Virus record (IMG/VR): IMGVR_UViG_2690316105_000023
Coordinates: 1-6,797 of that record
Length of the DNA: 6,797 nt
DNA from: a virus
Lineage: Duplodnaviria; Heunggongvirae; Uroviricota; Caudoviricetes
Strand: one strand, 5' to 3'
Part shown: piece by piece, positions 1-6,797 of the stretch
How positions within the stretch are numbered: the first letter of the stretch is position 1
Layout: each line of letters begins with the position of its first letter
Notes under the pieces: model-generated
Databases searched by the model: none
What the model was told of the DNA's origin: nothing
Seen by the model: the letters and a program-made list of their open reading frames with translations, nothing else
Translations under genes and position numbers: made by a program

Positions 1-315
1 TCATGATTCCACCTCTCCGGTTTTAACGTTGATGGTTGTTACCTGTTCCGCTTCGGCAATCTCCCGTTCTGTCAGCGTGGCAAAGTTTGCAGCTGCCGTT
101 GTCATGAATGCGCTTATCAGTTCGGGATTCTCCTTCGCGTATCCTTCCCGTGTGTGGCGGTCTATAACTTTGATTGCCACCTTTAGGGAAAGCTCTGTCA
201 TGTCTAACGCTTTATATTTTTGCTGTGTTCTGTCTCTGCGCATTTTGGTCATTTGTCGCCCCTGATTCATGTTTTCGGTCGGCATGTTTGTTAAGTGATT
301 TTGATGTATGCACAT
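1..315 (-). CDS. Hypothetical protein, 5' portion only (runs off the left edge)
   Basis: Open frame with two candidate starts: ATG 315 (GGGGG SD, 9-nt spacer) or ATG 252 (AGGGG SD, 6-nt spacer; MTKMRRDRTQQKYKALDMTELSLKVAIKVIDRH...). No stop within the window. Function unknown. Confidence 0.5.
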   Translation of the reverse strand: MCIHQNHLTNMPTENMNQGRQMTKMRRDRTQQKYKALDMTELSLKVAIKVIDRHTREGYAKENPELISAFMTTAAANFATLTEREIAEAEQVTTINVKTGEVES

Positions 316-361
316 TTATTTTTACCCCCTCGTTTAAAAAGTTTTAGGTTGTGGTGCACCT

Positions 362-587
362 CCTCTACCTCTCTACCTAATCATCTTTCAGGTCAGTAAT
401 GGCGCGGCTTTCAGATGGGTAGAGGGCTTTCGTGGCCCTCTACCCATCATCTACCCGCCCCTCACAAACAACCTTAATCATGGTGGAGGGGGTAGAGGGC
501 TTTTATTTGCCTTCTACCTGCCCCTCTACCCACTTATCATATTGAATAATTTATATTTATTTTCTTTAGGTAGAAGAGGTAGAGGGC
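362..587. repeat. Iteron cluster, putative origin of replication
   Basis: At least nine copies of the 7-bp core CTCTACC / GGTAGAG in both orientations: 363-369, 371-377, 418-424, 438-444, 450-455 (partial), 492-498, 512-518 (variant), 524-530, 569-575 (variant), 578-584. Includes the inverted pair GGTAGAGGGC-N7-GCCCTCTACC (418-444) and an AT-rich stretch at 532-567. Starts right after the primase stop. Confidence 0.7.
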
Positions 588-599
588 TTTTGTCTAAAA

Positions 600-2354
600 T
601 TATAAAAACGCGTCGCAATCCTCTGTTGTTGTCACATTGGTTTGCGTAAGTCCTTTAACCCTGCGCGTTATATATTCACATCCGTAAACTTTTGCCGCTG
701 GCTTCATGGCCTTGCTGAAATCAGCCACGTTTAGCGGCTTGCTTCTTCCTGCGTATGCCATAAACGCCAGATAGACGCGGTAAAGGCTGTTTCTGGTCGT
801 GTACTTCACTGAATCGCCACCGCCACCCATCATCAGGCCGCGCGCTTCCTCCAGAAAATTCAGGAACTGGCAAAACTCAATAACCGGATCCGTCTGTTGC
901 TTTATTGCCAGTGCTTCATCACCGTCACGCTGTTCCAGTAGTAAAGCCCGTGCCTTCTCAGGGTCGGCAAAGTTCGCCAGTAATCGGCGGATAATCACAG
1001 GGATTTCAGCCGCGACCTTCTCCGGCAAATCCTTGTCCTTTTCTGCCTCGCTAACGATATTGTCAAAGCGAAAAATAACCCGACGACGTGCCACGCCTCC
1101 GGCCCGTTCGGTGAATATCATCGGGTTGTTGTTGGTCGTCAGCACCACCGCCCTGATTACCGCCGTGAAACGCTTTTCATATTTCGGGTTAATTTCCACG
1201 GGGTCGCCGCCCGTGATTTTCTTGATGCCCGTTCCTTCGCCTGTATATTTCGGCTGGTCTGCCAGGACGATAAGACGACTCCCGACAACCTGCGCACGTC
1301 CACCAGCATCATCAAGCGATGTCATTTCAGCGCTTACCGTGTTCTGTTTCCCTGCCAGAAGGCTGGCTATGTGCGTGAATGTACTTTTACCGCTTCCGCC
1401 GTCTCCGGTGGCCTCAATAAACATCTGCCAGTCGTACCGGTTCGCCATAATCATGTACAGCGCGGCACATATACGCATCATCTTGCGCGGGTCTTTTCCG
1501 GCTGCGTGCTCAAGCCATTTATGAAAATTTGGCGCGTTATCGCGGATGTTCTCCCCTGGTGCTGGTGGCGTGTACTCAATACCGTTGTGCGTGGTGATCC
1601 AGTTCTCCGGCGTGTGCGGGGAAAATTCCCCCGTTTTCAGGTCAAGCGCACCATTGGCGAACGGCAACAAATCGCCGGACGGCTCGCCCATTGGTTCGGC
1701 AATAACTTTTAACGCTTCCACGGCGTTATTGATTACGCGCTTGCTGAAAGTGGCCCTGTGCTCTGAATAGATCGCCACCATTTCGCGGCTAAGTTCCATT
1801 GTGCTGACCGGACACCATACCCCGCCGCGCCATACGTGAACGATTTCACTTTCAGGATGTACGCAAACGCCATCAAAGCGATCGGCAAGCAGCTGCGCGC
1901 GCTCACTGTCCGCCATCTGCGAAAGTTGCGCCTTTTGCTTTACCGGAAGCTCAATGACCAGACCATCAGAAAGATTCTGGCGCTCACGGGCCAGATATTC
2001 GCGCCAGTTCTCCACCTTCTGACCGTGCATACCATCAGGGTAAAAATTTGCATCCTGTACGCCTGCCGCCGCCAGCTTCTGGCCAATCGCCTTTATCATT
2101 ACTGGCGCAAGATATCCGGCCCTGAATATGCGCACGGATTTTCTGCCTTCCGGCACAATTTGCAGCTTATCCAGTTCTGATAACTGCTGCTCCCCAAGCC
2201 ACACAGGAGGCTCATTATCTCCGGCCATACGCGCATCATGTTCCTGCCATTGTTTCGCGTGTGCCCAGGCATCACTACCCGCAAAAATAATGACTTCTGT
2301 TCCTTTGTGTTTTATGCCGCGTGACTGCTGTTTTACGTTCGGTGCCAGTTTCAT
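600..2354 (-). CDS. Primase/helicase-type replication initiator (P4 alpha-like / PICI Pri-Rep-like, SF3 P-loop NTPase)
   Basis: 584-aa ORF with AGGGG SD 6 nt upstream of the ATG. Walker A motif GDGGSGKST and Walker B-like RLIVLADQ are present; the gene sits directly upstream of an iteron cluster. Confidence 0.9.
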   Translation of the reverse strand: MKLAPNVKQQSRGIKHKGTEVIIFAGSDAWAHAKQWQEHDARMAGDNEPPVWLGEQQLSELDKLQIVPEGRKSVRIFRAGYLAPVMIKAIGQKLAAAGVQDANFYPDGMHGQKVENWREYLARERQNLSDGLVIELPVKQKAQLSQMADSERAQLLADRFDGVCVHPESEIVHVWRGGVWCPVSTMELSREMVAIYSEHRATFSKRVINNAVEALKVIAEPMGEPSGDLLPFANGALDLKTGEFSPHTPENWITTHNGIEYTPPAPGENIRDNAPNFHKWLEHAAGKDPRKMMRICAALYMIMANRYDWQMFIEATGDGGSGKSTFTHIASLLAGKQNTVSAEMTSLDDAGGRAQVVGSRLIVLADQPKYTGEGTGIKKITGGDPVEINPKYEKRFTAVIRAVVLTTNNNPMIFTERAGGVARRRVIFRFDNIVSEAEKDKDLPEKVAAEIPVIIRRLLANFADPEKARALLLEQRDGDEALAIKQQTDPVIEFCQFLNFLEEARGLMMGGGGDSVKYTTRNSLYRVYLAFMAYAGRSKPLNVADFSKAMKPAAKVYGCEYITRRVKGLTQTNVTTTEDCDAFL

Positions 2355-2650
2355 TTTTTACCCCTGAATCCGTTAATCATGGTTTTCAGCTTCTGGATGT
2401 TTGCCCGTGCCCTGGCGTTGCTGGTGGGCACGTTATGCGGCGCGGTCTGTACCAGAGAAAAATCACGCCGGAACTGATAAACAGGCATCACGCAATCATA
2501 TTCGTAACCTTCACGGCGGTAGGTTACGCGCCGTTCTTCCACGCCCTTAATCATTACCGTGCCGCCGTACTGGTCGCGGTAAATATCACCGCGCGTAAAT
2601 TTAGGGTGAGTGTTGCCACTGGCAGTTAAGCCAGAATATTTAAGTTTCAT
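2351..2650 (-). CDS. Hypothetical protein, 99 aa, translationally coupled to the primase gene
   Basis: GGAG upstream of ATG 2650; its TGA stop overlaps the primase ATG (ATGA). No family recognised. Confidence 0.7.
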   Translation of the reverse strand: MKLKYSGLTASGNTHPKFTRGDIYRDQYGGTVMIKGVEERRVTYRREGYEYDCVMPVYQFRRDFSLVQTAPHNVPTSNARARANIQKLKTMINGFRGKK

Positions 2651-2655
2651 TATTT

Positions 2656-2889
2656 TTATTCTCCGGTGTGCTGTTCTTTATATCTGTCGTGCAATAGATC
2701 TATTTCTTGCAGTTCCATTATTACAGGCTCAAGAAGCGTTATTAATGCCGTGGCAATTCTTGATTTTTGTTTGTCGCGTTCATTGTCGCCAAGTGTTTCA
2801 AGCCATATGCGCAATATTTCCAGCATGTTTTCACTGTGAGAAAGTGCAAGAAATGCGCGGTCTATTGTTTCGAGGTAAATATCACGCAT
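2656..2889 (-). CDS. Hypothetical protein, 77 aa
   Basis: GAGGATG SD about 6 nt upstream of ATG 2889; the gene start overlaps the preceding gene's stop. No family recognised. Confidence 0.65.
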   Translation of the reverse strand: MRDIYLETIDRAFLALSHSENMLEILRIWLETLGDNERDKQKSRIATALITLLEPVIMELQEIDLLHDRYKEQHTGE

Positions 2890-3328
2890 GGCTTACATCC
2901 TCAGGAAATTTTCTTCTGTAACGCGCCTCTGCCACATATTCCGCATAATCGGCGGCGATATTCAGTACATCAAGTCCCGTTGATTTATATTCTTTCGTGG
3001 AAAGTAAGAAAAAAGCCGCTCTAATAAGTTCTGGCATTGACGAAAGCGCATCAGCCGCATCATCAGGAACGCCGGAAAATTCCTGTTTCAGGGAATTAAA
3101 ACGATCATCACGCATAACCCCCCCATTTTCACAATCAGCAACAAGAATATTTTTAGCGTCATTCAGCGACCGCGTAGCGGTGTATCGGATATATTCCAGG
3201 GCTAACGTTGTCCGGTCTTTCTGTTCTTCTCCCTGCGCAAGCTCTGCCGTGCATTCAATATCAATAAGCGCGTGCATCAGCGTAGTGAGTGCGGCTGCTG
3301 CGTTCGGTGTGGTTTTATTCTGCAACAT
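2882..3328 (-). CDS. Hypothetical protein, 148 aa
   Basis: GGAG 7 nt upstream of ATG 3328; stop overlaps the next start (ATGCGTGA). No family recognised by eye. Confidence 0.7.
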   Translation of the reverse strand: MLQNKTTPNAAAALTTLMHALIDIECTAELAQGEEQKDRTTLALEYIRYTATRSLNDAKNILVADCENGGVMRDDRFNSLKQEFSGVPDDAADALSSMPELIRAAFFLLSTKEYKSTGLDVLNIAADYAEYVAEARYRRKFPEDVSHA

Positions 3329-3533
3329 ATCTTAACTCCACTGAACTTACGTATTTACACGGGTTTCCTTTTACCTGTCGCACACGGTAGGAATCGTTTT
3401 TAATCACTTCCGCTATTTGCCCAAACTTTTTTACCGCTGTACGGCGGCTCTTGTAGCGGTAAGTGTTTATCTCCCTTCTGCTCATTACCGCTTCATTGTG
3501 ATATCTGGTTATCACTATCAGCACTTCAAACAT
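3315..3533 (-). CDS. Hypothetical protein (72 aa from ATG 3533; ORF track starts at a TTG at 3563)
   Basis: AGGGGG 6 nt upstream of ATG 3533; product MFEVLIVITRYHNEAVMSRREINTYRYKSRRTAVKKFGQIAEVIKNDSYRVRQVKGNPCKYVSSVELRYVAE. Its 3' end overlaps the next gene start by 14 nt. Confidence 0.6.
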   Translation of the reverse strand: MFEVLIVITRYHNEAVMSRREINTYRYKSRRTAVKKFGQIAEVIKNDSYRVRQVKGNPCKYVSSVELRYVAE

Positions 3534-3696
3534 GACGCACCCCCTGACGAATACGGGCGACAAAAATCAGATGTGCGTGCGGCAACTGGGCGCGGGCTTC
3601 GCGTTCAGTGGCTGCGGTAACGGTGTAAATATCAATGCTGCTGTGGTGGCACTGCATAAAGCGCCAGACAAAGTAAGGGCGTGCGGATACAGCCAT
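3526..3696 (-). CDS. Small protein, paralog A1 (56 aa), unknown function; may instead be the C-terminal part of a longer ORF 3526-3990
   Basis: GGGAG 8 nt upstream of ATG 3696; product MAVSARPYFVWRFMQCHHSSIDIYTVTAATEREARAQLPHAHLIFVARIRQGVRHV, paralogous to A2. The stop overlaps the ATG of the next gene (ATGTTTGA). The same frame stays open upstream to 3990/4032, so a 154/168-aa fusion is an alternative. Confidence 0.5.
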   Translation of the reverse strand: MAVSARPYFVWRFMQCHHSSIDIYTVTAATEREARAQLPHAHLIFVARIRQGVRHV

Positions 3697-3861
3697 GTGA
3701 AAGGCTCCCAATTTAATGTTAAGGAGTCTCACCACTACGCTGCTAAACGGGGTGGCGAGACGTAACAGGGTTAGCAGACTGGCAAATTGGGAAACCAGCG
3801 AGCGCAAAGGCTCCCCCGTTACGCCCCGCCATAATGCGGGTATGGGTAGGTTTACGGACAC

Positions 3862-3985
3862 AAAAAAACCGCTTATCGGATATGGGCGGCTGTCCGCCAA
3901 TTTATTCAGGCTGCTAAACCCGGTCGCCATGTGGGCGACGGGTGAAGCATACAGCCCCGTGATAATTTTTTGCAAGCGGTTTTTA
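3862..3985 (-). ncRNA. Candidate structured RNA element between the two paralogs (speculative; possible immunity/attenuator RNA)
   Basis: On the minus-strand transcript a long-range helix (AAAAACCGCUUG pairing with AAGCGGUUUUU) encloses three local hairpins: GGCUG/CAGCC, a 10-bp ACCCGUCGCC/GGCGACCGGGU stem, and GGCGG-ACAG-CCGCC. It ends in a U7 run. It overlaps an open frame (MSKNRLQK...), so a coding interpretation is not excluded. Confidence 0.2.
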
Positions 3986-4180
3986 CTCATGATGTGACCC
4001 CTGACGAATACGAGCGGCAAATACAGCAACACAACCTGACGGGCAACGGCTACGCGCTTCGCGTTCCGTCCAGGCGGTTACGTGGATGATTTGAGATTCT
4101 CCGGCACTCAGGGCCAGAAAACGCCACACAAAGGCCGTTTGTGTGTGTACAAGGTGTGTTATATGATTTACGGCAACCAT
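3983..4180 (-). CDS. Small protein, paralog A2 (65 aa), unknown function
   Basis: AGGAG 5 nt upstream of ATG 4180; product MVAVNHITHLVHTQTAFVWRFLALSAGESQIIHVTAWTEREARSRCPSGCVAVFAARIRQGSHHE. Shares FVWRF, VTAxTEREAR and ARIRQG with A1, and the nucleotide differences in the conserved core are mostly synonymous in this frame. The stop overlaps a downstream ATG (3988-3990) in an ATGAGTAA arrangement. Confidence 0.55.
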   Translation of the reverse strand: MVAVNHITHLVHTQTAFVWRFLALSAGESQIIHVTAWTEREARSRCPSGCVAVFAARIRQGSHHE

Positions 4181-4209
4181 AACGGCTCCTAGTTTACGTT
4201 GTTGGTTAG

Positions 4210-4253
4210 AAGCCCTGCGAGTGGTAATGACACTTGCGGGGCTTTGCTTTTTT
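4210..4253 (+). terminator. Plus-strand intrinsic-terminator-like hairpin inside the 5' leader of the leftward operon
   Basis: 14-bp stem AAGCCCTGCGAGTG / CACTTGCGGGGCTT (4210-4223 / 4231-4244, two G-U pairs), 7-nt loop, then TGCTTTTTT (4245-4253). On the minus-strand transcript the same sequence is a 5' UTR hairpin preceded by an A-run. Confidence 0.45.
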
Positions 4254-4269
4254 AAGTGCTCTTGTGTTA

Positions 4270-4321
4270 AGGTGACCACCTAACAATAGAAAGGCTAATT
4301 CAATAGGTGACCACTTGTCAA
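4270..4321 (-). promoter_or_regulatory. Candidate leftward operon promoter with two direct-repeat operator-like sites (AGGTGACCAC)
   Basis: Minus strand: perfect -35 TTGACA (plus coords 4316-4321), 18-bp spacer, -10 TAGCCT (4292-4297). Identical 10-mers AGGTGACCAC at 4270-4279 and 4305-4314, each containing the GGTNACC palindrome, lie in the spacer and just downstream of the predicted start site. Confidence 0.4.
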
Positions 4322-4506
4322 CAATCAAACGCGATAAAAGCCCTAAAGGGGACGGGCAATCCCCACAATTCAGAATGCGAATTTCTCCAGAGCTAAAAGA
4401 GCAATTCGATAAAGAAGCACAGAGCGACGGCATAAGCCTAGCCAACTGGCTTAAAGAGTTGGGGCGTACTGAACTAAAGCGGCGCGGTATAGAACCCAAA
4501 GGATAA
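4315..4506 (+). CDS. Putative ribbon-helix-helix (CopG/Arc/MetJ-like) DNA-binding protein
   Basis: Segment RMRISPELKEQFDKEAQSDGISLANWLKELGRTEL fits a beta-strand / helix / helix RHH pattern. Start is uncertain: TTG at 4315 (AGGTGA 4 nt upstream) or ATG at 4375 (no clear SD), giving 63 or 43 aa. Confidence 0.45.
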   Translation: MSTIKRDKSPKGDGQSPQFRMRISPELKEQFDKEAQSDGISLANWLKELGRTELKRRGIEPKG

Positions 4507-4563
4507 AAACTATCAGCGCCGTGGTGTGAGGTATTACGGCGCATTGCTATGCAGGACAACACA

Positions 4564-4737
4564 ATGACCGATAAAGAATTGACCAAAACATTATCACCGG
4601 CACGGAAAAGACGGCGCAGAAAGATAGAGCATGAATCAGAAAGATTCGCGCCATGTGCTTTTGCCCTTGAGCAATTCCTTAAAGAGTACAGGGAAAAGCG
4701 CTCATTGCAGGTATGGCAACGAACTGAACCAGACTGA
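4564..4737 (+). CDS. Hypothetical small basic protein (57 aa from ATG 4564; ORF track starts at 4549)
   Basis: ORF MTDKELTKTLSPARKRRRRKIEHESERF... with AGGA 8 nt upstream of ATG 4564 and a KRRRRK basic patch. No family recognised; kept as low-confidence because it is co-oriented with the RHH ORF and followed by the 4833-4860 terminator. Confidence 0.3.
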   Translation: MTDKELTKTLSPARKRRRRKIEHESERFAPCAFALEQFLKEYREKRSLQVWQRTEPD

Positions 4738-4832
4738 TTGCATTGCCCACCAGCCTGATAGCGGCTATCATCCCCGTGCTTATGTTTGGGATCACACACA
4801 CAAACGGCGCAGCGTGTTATCTGTTCAGAAAG

Positions 4833-4860
4833 GCGGCTCCATTTCGGGGCCGCTTTTTTT
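4833..4860 (+). terminator. Rho-independent terminator ending the short plus-strand unit
   Basis: 8-bp GC-rich stem GCGGCTCC / GGGGCCGC (4833-4840 / 4846-4853, one G-U pair), 5-nt loop ATTTC, then seven T (4854-4860). Confidence 0.65.
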
Positions 4861-5006
4861 ATGCCTGAAAAACCCCAATTTTGTGGTTTTCCAGTCTCAC
4901 CAGGGCGAACGAATCCCCGCCCACGTTCTGGCGTATATTCAATCTTCATGGTTATAGCTCTGTGTTCAGATGATTGATGTGTGGCGGCTGTGTGCCGCCA
5001 GCGTGA

Positions 5007-5195
5007 TTAATGAACTGCCTTGCAGCTATCCTTCCAGGCCAGAACCTCGGATAAAGACCAGCCAACGGAACGACCGCCAAGTTTACGACGTGATGGGAAT
5101 TGTCCGGCCTTTTCCAGGCGGTAGCGGCATGAGCGGCTAAGGCCTGTTAGCTTTTCGCATTCTTTTTCACGTATAAACCGATCAGTGCTTAACAC
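5007..5195 (-). CDS. alpA: AlpA-family phage transcriptional regulator (excisionase-like HTH)
   Basis: 62-aa ORF with the AlpA signature EKLTGLSRSCRYRLEKAGQFPSRRKLGGRSVGWSLSEVLAW. GTG start preceded by a strong SD (AAGGGGG, 5-nt spacer). It sits immediately downstream of int, as in CP4-57-type elements. Confidence 0.85.
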   Translation of the reverse strand: MLSTDRFIREKECEKLTGLSRSCRYRLEKAGQFPSRRKLGGRSVGWSLSEVLAWKDSCKAVH

Positions 5196-5256
5196 TATTG
5201 CCCCCTTTCGTTTCTTAAAGAGTTATTTCGTGTTCTATTGCGTTGGGATGTGTCTG

Positions 5257-5285
5257 ATTGTGTCAGGATGATTCAGAGTTGGCAA
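5257..5285 (-). promoter_or_regulatory. Candidate sigma70 promoter for alpA
   Basis: On the minus strand: -35 TTGCCA (plus coords 5280-5285), 17-bp spacer, -10 CACAAT (5257-5262), about 55 nt upstream of the alpA GTG. Consensus matching by eye only. Confidence 0.3.
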
Positions 5286-5354
5286 ATGTTGAGGTCGTAT
5301 GGTTTACAGAAACAGGAATAATCAGGATAAAATCATTTAAATTCATGTTAATAC

Positions 5355-5386
5355 AAAGGCATAAAATATTGTTTCATGCCTTTTTT
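5355..5386. terminator. Candidate bidirectional intrinsic terminator between int and alpA
   Basis: Perfect 8-bp stem AAAGGCAT / ATGCCTTT (5355-5362 / 5376-5383) with a 13-nt loop, followed by T-run 5381-5386 on the plus strand and by a T-rich TTGTATT on the minus strand. It lies about 200 nt downstream of the int stop on the int strand. Confidence 0.4.
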
Positions 5387-5495
5387 CTCGCTATTTAAAG
5401 AGTGATTCGCTAGTGTATAAAAAACCAGTAACACATTAAAAATCAGCTACTTATAAATCCGTACACTTTTTCGTCTCTTGTTCGTAGTTGTTCCG

Positions 5496-5525
5496 CATTG
5501 TTGCTCATTGTTGCTCATTGTTGCA
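5496..5525. repeat. Tandem 10-bp direct repeat CATTGTTGCT x3 (third copy CATTGTTGCA) in the int 3' region
   Basis: Read directly from the sequence: cattgttgct cattgttgct cattgttgca at 5496-5525, flanked by further TTGTT-rich sequence. Confidence 0.6.
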
Positions 5526-5579
5526 TGTTGTATCTGTTCGCATATCCAGTATGCGCATACTGAAAAAACACGAAAAAAA

Positions 5580-6797
5580 TTATTTTCTTCTGGCTACTGG
5601 TAGCGTGGTTACGTTTTCATGTGTTCCCGCCAGTATCCCTAACCGCTCCATCCACATATCCAGCGCATTGCGTTTAGCATCCAGATAACGGGAATGATTA
5701 TAAACTCGCTGAATTCCTGGCATCTGATGACCTGTAAGCTGCTCCACGACATGCGGATCAACGCCTAAATCGTTCAGCATGGTTGTAAAGGTGCGCCGGA
5801 TGTCATGCAGTGACCAGTGAGGATGATTAAGCCTCCTGTGCGCTAATCTTCCATACTGCGATACGCTGGCCTCCTGTTTCACTTCCCCCAGCAATAAGCC
5901 CGTGTGCCTGTTCTGCTCCACCAGCTGCGTGACGAACGGCAGGATCGCTTCCGGTATGGGCCGGAATATTGCGACCTTCGTTTTGCTGTGCTCCTTCGGA
6001 ACGGTCCATAGCATTTCCGTAAAATCCCACTCCCCGATCTCCGATAGCCTCAGTTCTACCGTCCTGGCTCCGAAGACAATCAGGAGGCGGATTAACGCGA
6101 CGTAGTAAGGGGAAAATATTTTTTTGTCCAGTGCCTGCAATAATTCGCCAAGTTCTTTGTTACTTAAGACACGTTCGCTTATATCCGGTTTTTTCCCAAC
6201 GTCCGCCACGTTCAGATCGTCCAGAACGTTGCTGATTGCATAGCGCCGCCTACGGCAGAACTTAAGCGCCTGTTTGCACGCCTGTAGCACGAATCCGGCA
6301 GTAACAGGCGTTCGCTTTGCCACCTGGTCAAAACAGGCCAGCCAGTGCCGTAGCTCGCATTTATCCAGCGGCATAGCACCAATCTGCTGTATTACGTGAT
6401 TATTAAGTCGCCTTTTCAGGGCGATATAATCCACGCGGTTTTCCTTTACGTAATACTCAAGCCAGTAGGTGAGCGCATCGCCAACCGTTACGGGCTTTAA
6501 CGCTTCCTGTACGGTGTAATTCATCTCATGACGTGGATTTTTCCCCTCAGCCAGCCATGTGCGACACTGTGCGGCTTTTTCCCTGGCTGCTTTCAGGCTC
6601 AGATCAGGATAACTTCCCAGCTTAATGCGTTCGGGTCGTGTCTCCCTTCCCGTTCCGGCCCTGTATGTGAAATACCAGGTCAATTTCCCTGATGTTAAAT
6701 ATTTCACGCTCAGGTTTCCGCCATCACTATAAAACGTGTTTTTCTCCGCTGGCTTACCATGAAGTTTCCTTAGCAAGGTATCGCTCAGTTTGTTCAT
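5580..6797 (-). CDS. int: Tyrosine recombinase / site-specific integrase, P4-type
   Basis: 405-aa ORF. N-terminus MNKLSDTLLRKLHGKPAEKNTFYSDGGNLSVKYLTSGKLTWYFTYR is typical of the P4-integrase arm-binding domain; C-terminus has the catalytic-core signature (HDIRRTF ... HQMPGIQRVYNHSRY). The ATG lies on the last three bases of the window, so the upstream RBS and promoter are not visible. Confidence 0.93.
   Translation of the reverse strand: MNKLSDTLLRKLHGKPAEKNTFYSDGGNLSVKYLTSGKLTWYFTYRAGTGRETRPERIKLGSYPDLSLKAAREKAAQCRTWLAEGKNPRHEMNYTVQEALKPVTVGDALTYWLEYYVKENRVDYIALKRRLNNHVIQQIGAMPLDKCELRHWLACFDQVAKRTPVTAGFVLQACKQALKFCRRRRYAISNVLDDLNVADVGKKPDISERVLSNKELGELLQALDKKIFSPYYVALIRLLIVFGARTVELRLSEIGEWDFTEMLWTVPKEHSKTKVAIFRPIPEAILPFVTQLVEQNRHTGLLLGEVKQEASVSQYGRLAHRRLNHPHWSLHDIRRTFTTMLNDLGVDPHVVEQLTGHQMPGIQRVYNHSRYLDAKRNALDMWMERLGILAGTHENVTTLPVARRK

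Follow-up and report, generated by a model that had tools for sequence, protein, structure and literature searches.

The 6,797-nt stretch of viral DNA analysed here (the window: positions 1 to 6,797 of the IMG/VR record IMGVR_UViG_2690316105_000023, Caudoviricetes) contains a leftward replication operon of a phage-inducible chromosomal island (PICI), and in the leader of this operon a terminator-like hairpin is read on the opposite, plus strand. The question raised by this locus is what the hairpin does: whether it ends a short RNA antisense to the start of the first gene, as proposed in the initial annotation, or works in some other way. The first gene, designated A2 in the initial annotation, was identified as a homologue of Icd-like cell division inhibitors. 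The comparative evidence given below makes it probable that a plus-strand antisense RNA of about 80 nt exists and represses this icd-like gene. The elements of the window concerned are the following:

3983-4180, minus strand: target gene for the Icd-like protein (65 amino acids; NF033153, 64.7 bits), the first in the leftward replication operon, with the Shine-Dalgarno (SD) sequence GGAG at 4189-4186 and ATG at 4180-4178
4139-4144, plus strand: predicted -35 TTGTGT of the antisense promoter P_as, from a promoter scan that gives weak support when taken alone
4162-4167, plus strand: predicted -10 of P_as, TATGAT, within codons 5-7 of the opposite-strand icd-like gene
4173-4253, plus strand: predicted cis-antisense RNA of about 80 nt, with a putative transcription start site (TSS) at 4172-4175 and the 3' end in the U-tract
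4175-4207, plus strand: stem-loop 1, stem 4175-4184 with 4197-4207 and a 12-nt loop at 4185-4196 (GCUCCUAGUUUA), from the fold and compensatory changes
4203-4210, plus strand: conserved TGGTTAGA motif, from BLAST loci and a motif-independent set
4209-4253, plus strand: stem-loop 2, stem 4209-4223 with 4231-4245, loop 4224-4230 (GTAATGA), then GC and U6, from the fold, covariation and strand asymmetry

The hairpin and the predicted antisense RNA in the window

Folding confirmed the strong plus-strand hairpin with a U-rich tract that had been noticed at this place: it has a G+C-rich stem of 15 bp (4209-4245; eight G-C and three G·U pairs, from G4209-T4245 at the base to G4223-C4231 at the top) with a 7-nt loop, followed by G4246 and C4247 and then by T4248-T4253. 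It folded at -26.8 kcal/mol (z = -6.2; equalled by none of 200 shuffles) and ranked first among the terminator-like sites of the window, and on the plus strand it has the features of an intrinsic terminator, i.e. a G+C-rich stem with a short loop and a U-rich tract 3' of the stem. The minus-strand RNA folded more weakly (-16.3 kcal/mol, z = -4.5), because the three G·U pairs turn into A·C mismatches on that strand. The initial distance of about 45 nt from the ribosome-binding site (RBS) of the target gene needed correction: the base of the hairpin is separated from the SD by 20 nt and from the ATG by 29 nt.

Sigma-70-like promoters were ranked on both strands of the region 4080-4400 using an author-built position weight matrix (PWM). 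The first rank was taken by TTGACA-18-TAGCCT (4321-4292, minus strand), the predicted leftward promoter P_L, the second by TTGTGT-17-TATGAT (4139-4167, plus strand), the predicted P_as, and the third by a possible promoter of a divergent small gene (4244-4273, plus strand). P_as is thus predicted on the strand opposite to the target and upstream of the terminator. A -10 hexamer near 4160, suspected in the initial annotation, is indeed present, although it is best read as TATGAT at 4162-4167, paired with TTGTGT over a 17-nt spacer, instead of as a TTATAT-like box.

The 81-nt RNA predicted between this promoter and the end of the U-tract folded into two hairpins (-35.5 kcal/mol, z = -5.5) and spans the complements of both the start codon (CAT, 4178-4180) and the SD (CTCC, 4186-4189). 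The anti-SD CUCC is displayed in the loop of stem-loop 1 and the start-codon complement CAU lies in its stem, at the base of which UGGUU of the TGGTTAGA motif is predicted to pair with AACCA (4175-4179). The control duplex of the predicted RNA with its target had an energy of -159.8 kcal/mol.

Conservation, covariation and distribution of the cassette

Fifteen E. coli loci obtained with BLAST were lined up and had the same plus-strand order: TATGAT or TATGCT inside the icd start, CAT, the SD complement, a near-invariant TGGTTAGA, the hairpin and a T-rich tail. The motif was found in every E. coli locus retrieved by BLAST, the spacing from TTGTGT to the -10 of P_as recurred in these relatives, and the hairpin stems differed in sequence between loci with their complementarity kept. 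Pattern scans of viral and metagenome contigs added 240 further loci; 160 unique instances in 60 clusters were retained, an opposite-strand ATG with an SD and an open reading frame (ORF) of at least 40 amino acids being required.

The median length predicted for the RNA across these 60 clusters is 79 nt. A TAnnnT hexamer is present at a fixed offset in 58 of them (background 0.0075 per position), starting 16 nt upstream of the C of CAT in 38 clusters, 15 nt in 11 and 10 nt in 9; the residues coded opposite to it vary and the downstream proteins are often unrelated. Counted within stem bounds set by the motif, the G·U pairs were oriented for the plus strand in 102 cases and for the minus strand in 16, the more stable hairpin fold belonged to the plus strand in 49 clusters and to the minus strand in seven, and a U-rich tail satisfying the strict terminator rule followed the stem on the plus strand in 45 clusters and on the minus strand in none. 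These strand-specific signals argue that the plus-strand RNA is what selection maintains. A bidirectional terminator was also considered and rejected, because after the stem the minus strand reads a conserved UAACCA with no U-rich tail in any of the 60 clusters.

Covariation was assessed in three alignments. The MAFFT-only alignment A1 of 26 diverse sequences, from which the covariance model R1 was built, had 86.9% of the cells paired in the two-helix structure, a proportion that none of 500 shuffles reached (72% after shuffling); slid controls gave 38-49%. All five modelled pairs of stem-loop 1 and eight of the 15 terminator pairs had changed on both sides. In the model-fitted alignment A2 (62 distinct sequences) 91.4% of the cells were paired against 70%, and compensatory cells numbered 270 against 85; A1 is the cleaner test, because A2 leans towards the model. 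Finally, alignment A5, composed of loci chosen by protein similarity, reached 92.9% against 82% shuffled and at most 45% slid, with 10 pairs changed on both sides compared to 6.2. A conserved RNA structure was thus supported by covariation in all three. In the window R1 gave a single match (4173-4255, plus strand, 66.1 bits, E about 5e-13), and the island EcCICFT073 also contained one (NC_004431.1:1380770-1380853, minus strand). In Sp7 of O157 Sakai the predicted RNA would be located at about 1597425-1597507 of NC_002695.2, minus strand.

Because most family loci had come through the motif, icd-like loci were also fetched by protein similarity alone, using two single-protein scans with identities down to about 40%. 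An R1 match was located opposite the icd-like gene, at a constant distance from its ATG, in 117 of the 119 protein-selected loci, the two exceptions having no upstream sequence (L340) or a truncated protein match (L378). The 67 unique sequences of this set all had a TATGMT hexamer at -16, and the TGGTTAGA motif was exact in 60 of them (variants TGGTCAGA, TGGTAAGA and TGGTTATA). Taken together, the -10 box, covariation, plus-strand tail and anti-SD loop lend comparative support to the suggestion of the initial annotation that a short plus-strand RNA, antisense to the SD and start codon of the first gene, is predicted at this locus.

The association of this unit (hereafter the cassette) with a gene start was not restricted to icd. 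Pfam and NCBIfam scans of 56 first-gene proteins behind the cassette (cluster representatives) revealed 21 Icd-like proteins and at least 16 of homing-endonuclease types, including HNH_3 (10), HNH (3) and GIY-YIG/group I intron endonucleases (3). In metagenome and IMG/VR contigs the cassette was observed before free-standing HNH or GIY-YIG genes that follow head, terminase or tail genes (L049, L059, L063, L151, L189, L235 and others). In the nuclease loci a co-oriented phage structural or packaging gene (Mu F-like head protein, terminase C-terminus, tail terminator) ends 6-22 nt beyond the hairpin, so that a plus-strand transcript can only be a short RNA there. A sense-strand TAnAAT -10 box lies 4-5 nt upstream of the hairpin in 17 of the 60 clusters, all of distant types, where the U-rich tail doubles as the complement of TAnAAT and the two promoters stand face to face about 85 bp apart; the window differs from these clusters in that its sense promoter is placed farther upstream. 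Since the genes behind the cassette (Icd-like, nucleases) are potentially toxic, they would fit with a tight post-transcriptional lock.

Rfam 15 had no family for the cassette, either in the window at E<=1 or in 13 diverse loci at the gathering threshold. An overlap with rnk_pseudo was rejected as chance (27.3 bits, where the gathering score is 55; E = 0.19). A BLAST search of 3700-4330 against 50,697 phage records matched only in the part containing a C4 module (see below), and no description of this RNA was found in the literature on Icd-like/C4/icd, O157 prophage small RNAs, PICI/AlpA and antisense RNAs of pathogenic E. coli; the paper by Pichon et al. (2012) proved to be unrelated. The satellite literature notes CI and seqA homologues in PICIs and nothing at the cassette position (PMC10111431). 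The cassette looks like a candidate new structured antisense RNA family with a mechanism of a known kind (P22 sar, SymR, IS10 RNA-OUT), and would be a new structured-RNA family for Rfam.

Proposed mechanism, known systems and rival explanations

In the mechanism proposed for the window, a constitutive sigma-70 promoter, TTGTGT-17-TATGAT (4139-4167), in the first codons of the icd-like gene would drive a plus-strand RNA, which would start about 4 nt before the start-codon complement, present the anti-SD in the loop of stem-loop 1 and undergo Rho-independent termination at the hairpin and U-tract 4209-4253. Its full complementarity to the leftward mRNA leader means that the RNA should pair with this leader, probably from a first contact between loops at the SD; the duplex would cover the SD and the AUG of the icd-like gene and provide RNase III with a substrate. 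The icd RNA, left untranslated, would be open to premature termination, which would also keep down the replication operon farther downstream (small ORFs, the DUF4222 gene for an RgdR-like protein and the primase gene) as long as the island is quiescent; icd/ant polarity is established in P1. Upon strong activation of the leftward promoter the mRNA would out-titrate the antisense RNA, and transcription across P_as would interfere with this promoter, which would give the locus the behaviour of a switch.

Several known systems resemble the predicted RNA. The sar RNA of P22 immI is a cis-antisense RNA of about 69 nt made from an opposite-strand promoter; it covers the ribosome-binding site of ant and acts alongside protein repressors. 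The predicted RNA, compared with sar in the initial annotation, is likewise short, has an opposite-strand promoter and covers the RBS of a gene that is to stay off, but no sequence similarity was found in the BLAST search of phage records with 3700-4330, the target heads its operon here while ant is internal, and the cassette is portable across unrelated genes. In SymR/SymE and IS10 RNA-OUT the antisense promoter is located in the first codons of the target, and the RNA starts a few nucleotides at most from the start codon and is complementary to SD and AUG; IS10 has convergent promoters a short distance apart, and its pairing begins at a stem-loop. The promoter position and the potentially harmful targets are shared with the cassette, whereas those are single lineage-restricted loci and the cassette has two hairpins, an anti-SD loop, a classical terminator and at least two unrelated target classes; no homology to SymR/SymE or IS10 RNA-OUT was detected by Rfam.

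Type I antitoxin logic had also been invoked initially. In type I toxin-antitoxin systems, hok/sok among them, a growth-inhibiting small protein of a mobile element is kept from being translated by an antisense RNA. This part of the comparison fared less well: type I toxins are typically small hydrophobic membrane peptides, while the 65-amino-acid Icd-like protein, as read from its sequence, has no run of transmembrane length (longest hydrophobic run about 12 residues), and its gene heads a long operon. Finally, the PeSL elements of T4-type phages are mobile regulatory cassettes, i.e. short conserved stem-loop-plus-promoter units found beside mobile or novel genes, where they mark junctions of recombination. 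The cassette would resemble them as a short portable stem-loop with a promoter at junctions, but PeSLs are sense-strand units of a terminator plus an early promoter, and neither an antisense RNA nor an anti-SD loop is known for them.

Several points weigh against an antisense RNA of this kind. The accessible literature contained no RNA-seq, TSS, Northern or CLIP (crosslinking and immunoprecipitation) evidence for it. The -35 of P_as is weak, and its -10 overlaps conserved His-Thr codons within the icd-like subfamily, so that a constraint on the protein could explain the conservation of the -10 within this subfamily taken alone. The leftward mRNA can also fold both helices, more weakly. The wider family was mostly gathered by a pattern containing TGGTTAGA and the stem base, so these positions are subject to bias there, and the model served to fit alignments A2 and A5. 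The Hfq-CRAC small RNA tables for O157 Sakai (Tree et al.), the Sp7 element of which carries the cassette, had no entry at 1596-1598 kb, a weak negative; RNAs of the cis-antisense kind usually act independently of Hfq, however.

The last structural point leads to the rival explanation that survives best, albeit as an unlikely one: the structures would work only in the leftward mRNA, as a 5'-proximal stabilising stem-loop and a second hairpin, with the AUG in its stem and the SD in its loop, that throttles translation of the toxic first gene, with no antisense RNA involved. The leftward TSS is placed near 4285 by the predicted P_L, and therefore the complement of the hairpin would fall into the 5' untranslated region (UTR). 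Watson-Crick helices exist on both strands, the minus-strand hairpin retaining -16.3 kcal/mol and z = -4.5; in the 17 of 60 clusters with TAnAAT 4-5 nt upstream the mRNA would begin with the hairpin; and RBS-sequestering hairpins control free-standing homing-endonuclease genes of T4-type phages. Such a mechanism does not account for the bias of G·U pairs to the plus strand (102 against 16), which leaves A·C mismatches in the mRNA, for the restriction of the U-rich tail to that strand (45 of 60 against 0 of 60) or for a plus-strand -10 box at a fixed offset over unrelated coding sequences, and the fold of the whole minus-strand leader of the window was no better than that of shuffles (z = -1.2 to -1.5). 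A 5' UTR role, the alternative offered in the initial annotation, is probably true in part, because the leader transcript includes the complementary strand of both helices, which still folds, more weakly; with the AUG in a stem and the hairpin 5'-proximal it probably contributes too, while the strand-specific signals favour the plus-strand RNA over a role in the leader only.

The next alternative concerns the switch region to the right of the hairpin, which has the following features:

4292-4321, minus strand: predicted leftward promoter P_L, -35 TTGACA (4321-4316), 18-nt spacer, -10 TAGCCT (4297-4292), the best PWM site
4270-4286 and 4305-4321: two 17-nt operator-like direct repeats AGGTGACCAC..., 35 bp apart, flanking P_L, from a repeat search
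4315-4506, plus strand: divergent small gene, 63 amino acids from TTG, YlcI/YnfO/HicB-like by the annotation of relatives
4244-4273, plus strand: possible promoter of this gene, TTGCTT (4244-4249) and TG-TAAGGT (4268-4273), beginning in the terminator tail, with a TSS predicted near 4280, from the PWM scan

The GTCAA(C) element, i.e. TTGAC on the leftward strand, is conserved in relatives beside type-specific repeats: the repeats occupy the same two positions around the leftward TTGAC -35 in every relative, with a sequence particular to that relative. The Pfam HicB match of the divergent gene product is weak (17.7 bits, under the cut-off); the protein is probably of the ribbon-helix-helix (RHH) type, and it may be regarded as a candidate maintenance repressor of Gram-negative PICIs.

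The hairpin could then be a plus-strand insulator shielding the divergent promoter and operator from stray antisense transcription, or a leader attenuator for the RHH gene transcribed from the TATGAT promoter, an explanation that we consider slightly less likely still than the mRNA-only one. The RHH start codon and the -35 of P_L overlap, the promoter of the RHH gene is only a predicted one whose -35 overlaps the U-tract, and the hairpin sits between the operon and the switch region, where homology blocks end, all of which would be in line with such a function. Yet the nuclease loci have no plus-strand gene after the hairpin, where a structural gene ends instead, the plus-strand gene of long-type E. 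coli loci has a clear promoter of its own (TGTGTATACT) farther right, and locus L007 has TTGATT-16-TACAAT directly after the hairpin; besides, an insulator alone would have no need for a conserved promoter at a fixed distance and for an anti-SD stem-loop.

A mainly DNA-level element whose RNA-like features are incidental, i.e. a junction (of recombination or of modules) or a mobile gene cassette's conserved end, is very improbable: homology with many E. coli islands does stop at 4252 or start at 4197 and the cassette accompanies unrelated genes in unrelated phages, but compensatory changes preserve both helices despite sequence drift, G·U wobble bias is a property of RNA, and a junction role is compatible with an RNA function and does not replace it. 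In BLAST comparisons the homology blocks shared with hundreds of E. coli islands often end at 4252 or begin at 4197, i.e. at the edges of the hairpin, which is therefore also a module boundary. Judged from these block ends, the cassette stands at a boundary, of recombination or of modules, that separates the replication operon from the immunity-type-specific switch region.

The host island and a second RNA control layer

The window is the regulatory and replication end of an EcCICFT073-type PICI, with the int - alpA - ... - primase order of this Gram-negative type and a gene order and neighbours matching those of EcCICFT073 (strain CFT073) and Sp7/CP-933C of O157:H7 Sakai; any capsid or packaging genes would fall beyond the window. 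Its other genes are:

5580-6797, minus strand: integrase
5007-5195, minus strand: AlpA (PF05930, 65 bits)
4315-4506 and 4549-4737, plus strand: two small genes, the first being the RHH gene described above
2351-2650, minus strand: DUF4222 protein, 99 amino acids, RGD at residues 20-22
600-2354, minus strand: D5-type primase (D5_N)

The leftward operon has the order Icd-like gene, small ORFs, DUF4222 gene and primase gene, and in the annotation of relatives the gene adjoining the hairpin is Icd-like and always heads the operon. In Gram-negative PICIs it is unclear whether a global repressor exists, the activator AlpA is the only regulator known, and uncontrolled island replication harms the host (Fillol-Salom et al. 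2018, PMC6092414). An antisense RNA at the start of the replication operon, beside an operator-flanked promoter and a divergent gene of the DNA-binding type, would be a testable candidate for island silence. The broader claim is held tentatively, with somewhat more doubt than belief: a widespread portable antisense cassette (promoter, anti-SD stem-loop, UGGUUAGA, terminator), undescribed before, would lock the translation of dangerous genes of mobile elements, i.e. Icd-like genes of PICIs and free-standing homing endonucleases of phages of many hosts. If this is true, the cassette would supply Gram-negative PICIs with a key part of the quiescence control that is missing there. The occurrence of the cassette with HNH and GIY-YIG nuclease genes suggests a general and mobile means of carrying toxic genes safely.

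The DUF4222 protein (2351-2650) is an orthologue of ECs1581/RgdR, and the operon that would be gated by the predicted antisense RNA contains its gene at a downstream position. RgdR (ECs1581), encoded on CP-933C/Sp7, is a positive regulator of the type III secretion system of the enterocyte effacement locus (LEE) (PMC3378721). Because this operon of enterohaemorrhagic E. coli (EHEC) O157:H7 (Sp7/CP-933C) encodes RgdR, the RNA could influence the expression of virulence genes; if the above claim is true, in EHEC the cassette would also gate this activator of type III secretion.

Farther down the same leader the window contains a second RNA control module:

3748-3952, minus strand: complete P1/P7-type immunity module, together with an icd copy at 3526-3696
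3903-3952, minus strand: a1/b1 target sites (Rfam c4-a1b1, 44.4 bits)
about 3862-3898, minus strand: isrK-like terminator (Rfam isrK, 37.6 bits)
3748-3836, minus strand: C4 antisense RNA (Rfam C4, RF01695, 74 bits)
3526-3696, minus strand: second icd-like gene (NF033153, 55 bits)

In P1 immI a C4-type RNA blocks the ribosome-binding site of icd and, through polarity, the downstream genes. The block of the icd RBS makes C4 (P1/P7) and CI (P4; RF01695, clan CL00128) similar to the predicted antisense RNA, and the C4 copy of the window lies 400 nt farther down the leader; in contrast, C4 and CI are processed from the sense transcript and act on short a/b sites, while the predicted RNA comes from the opposite strand and is fully complementary to its target. 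Rfam C4 (RF01695) had no match in 4173-4255. Neither membership of the hairpin in a C4/P4-CI immunity system nor mimicry of a C4 target by UGGUUAG was accepted, because R1 had no match in P4 or in the immI region of P7, no duplex signal was present between the predicted antisense RNA and C4 (z = -0.5), and many relatives have no C4 module.

The C4 module of the window is about 80% identical to the c4 region of P7/P1. Since neither Sakai Sp7, which is otherwise nearly identical, nor EcCICFT073 contains it, it is a mosaic insertion; many relatives with the cassette lack it as well. By its predicted RNAs, the island would have two successive RNA locks on two icd copies. The predicted antisense RNA (4173-4253, plus strand) is also partly complementary to the ribosome-binding region of the second icd copy (3680-3760, minus strand), the two icd copies sharing GGAGCC...AUGG; this duplex had z = -3.1 against dinucleotide shuffles, two of 300 being as good, which is weak evidence for a possible effect in trans.

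Some minor features were also observed. A terminator-like hairpin on the minus strand at 4125-4145, with a tail to 4115 (CACACAAACGGCCTTTGTGTG then GCGTTTTCTG), is found 35-65 nt into the coding part of the icd-like gene, in overlap with the predicted -35 of P_as. Its sequence is kept in the closest E. coli relatives and not in other icd N-terminal types; it could act as a translation-coupled attenuator, ending the operon transcript when icd translation is blocked. The 247-amino-acid ORF at 4206-4949 on the minus strand, annotated as ECs1576 in Sakai, overlaps the opposite-strand RHH gene and a 62-amino-acid ORF, has an odd Ser/Arg/Cys-rich composition and is labelled in pieces as pseudogenes by PGAP in several genomes; it is probably not a gene. 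The int-alpA RNA of Rfam (RF02996) was not detected between int and alpA of the window at E<=1, and was present at the gathering score in loci L080 (7532-7600, minus strand) and L217 (1663-1725, minus strand). Finally, the matches listed in a contig scan with the Icd-like protein included an E. albertii locus in which icd stands behind a C4-type structure.

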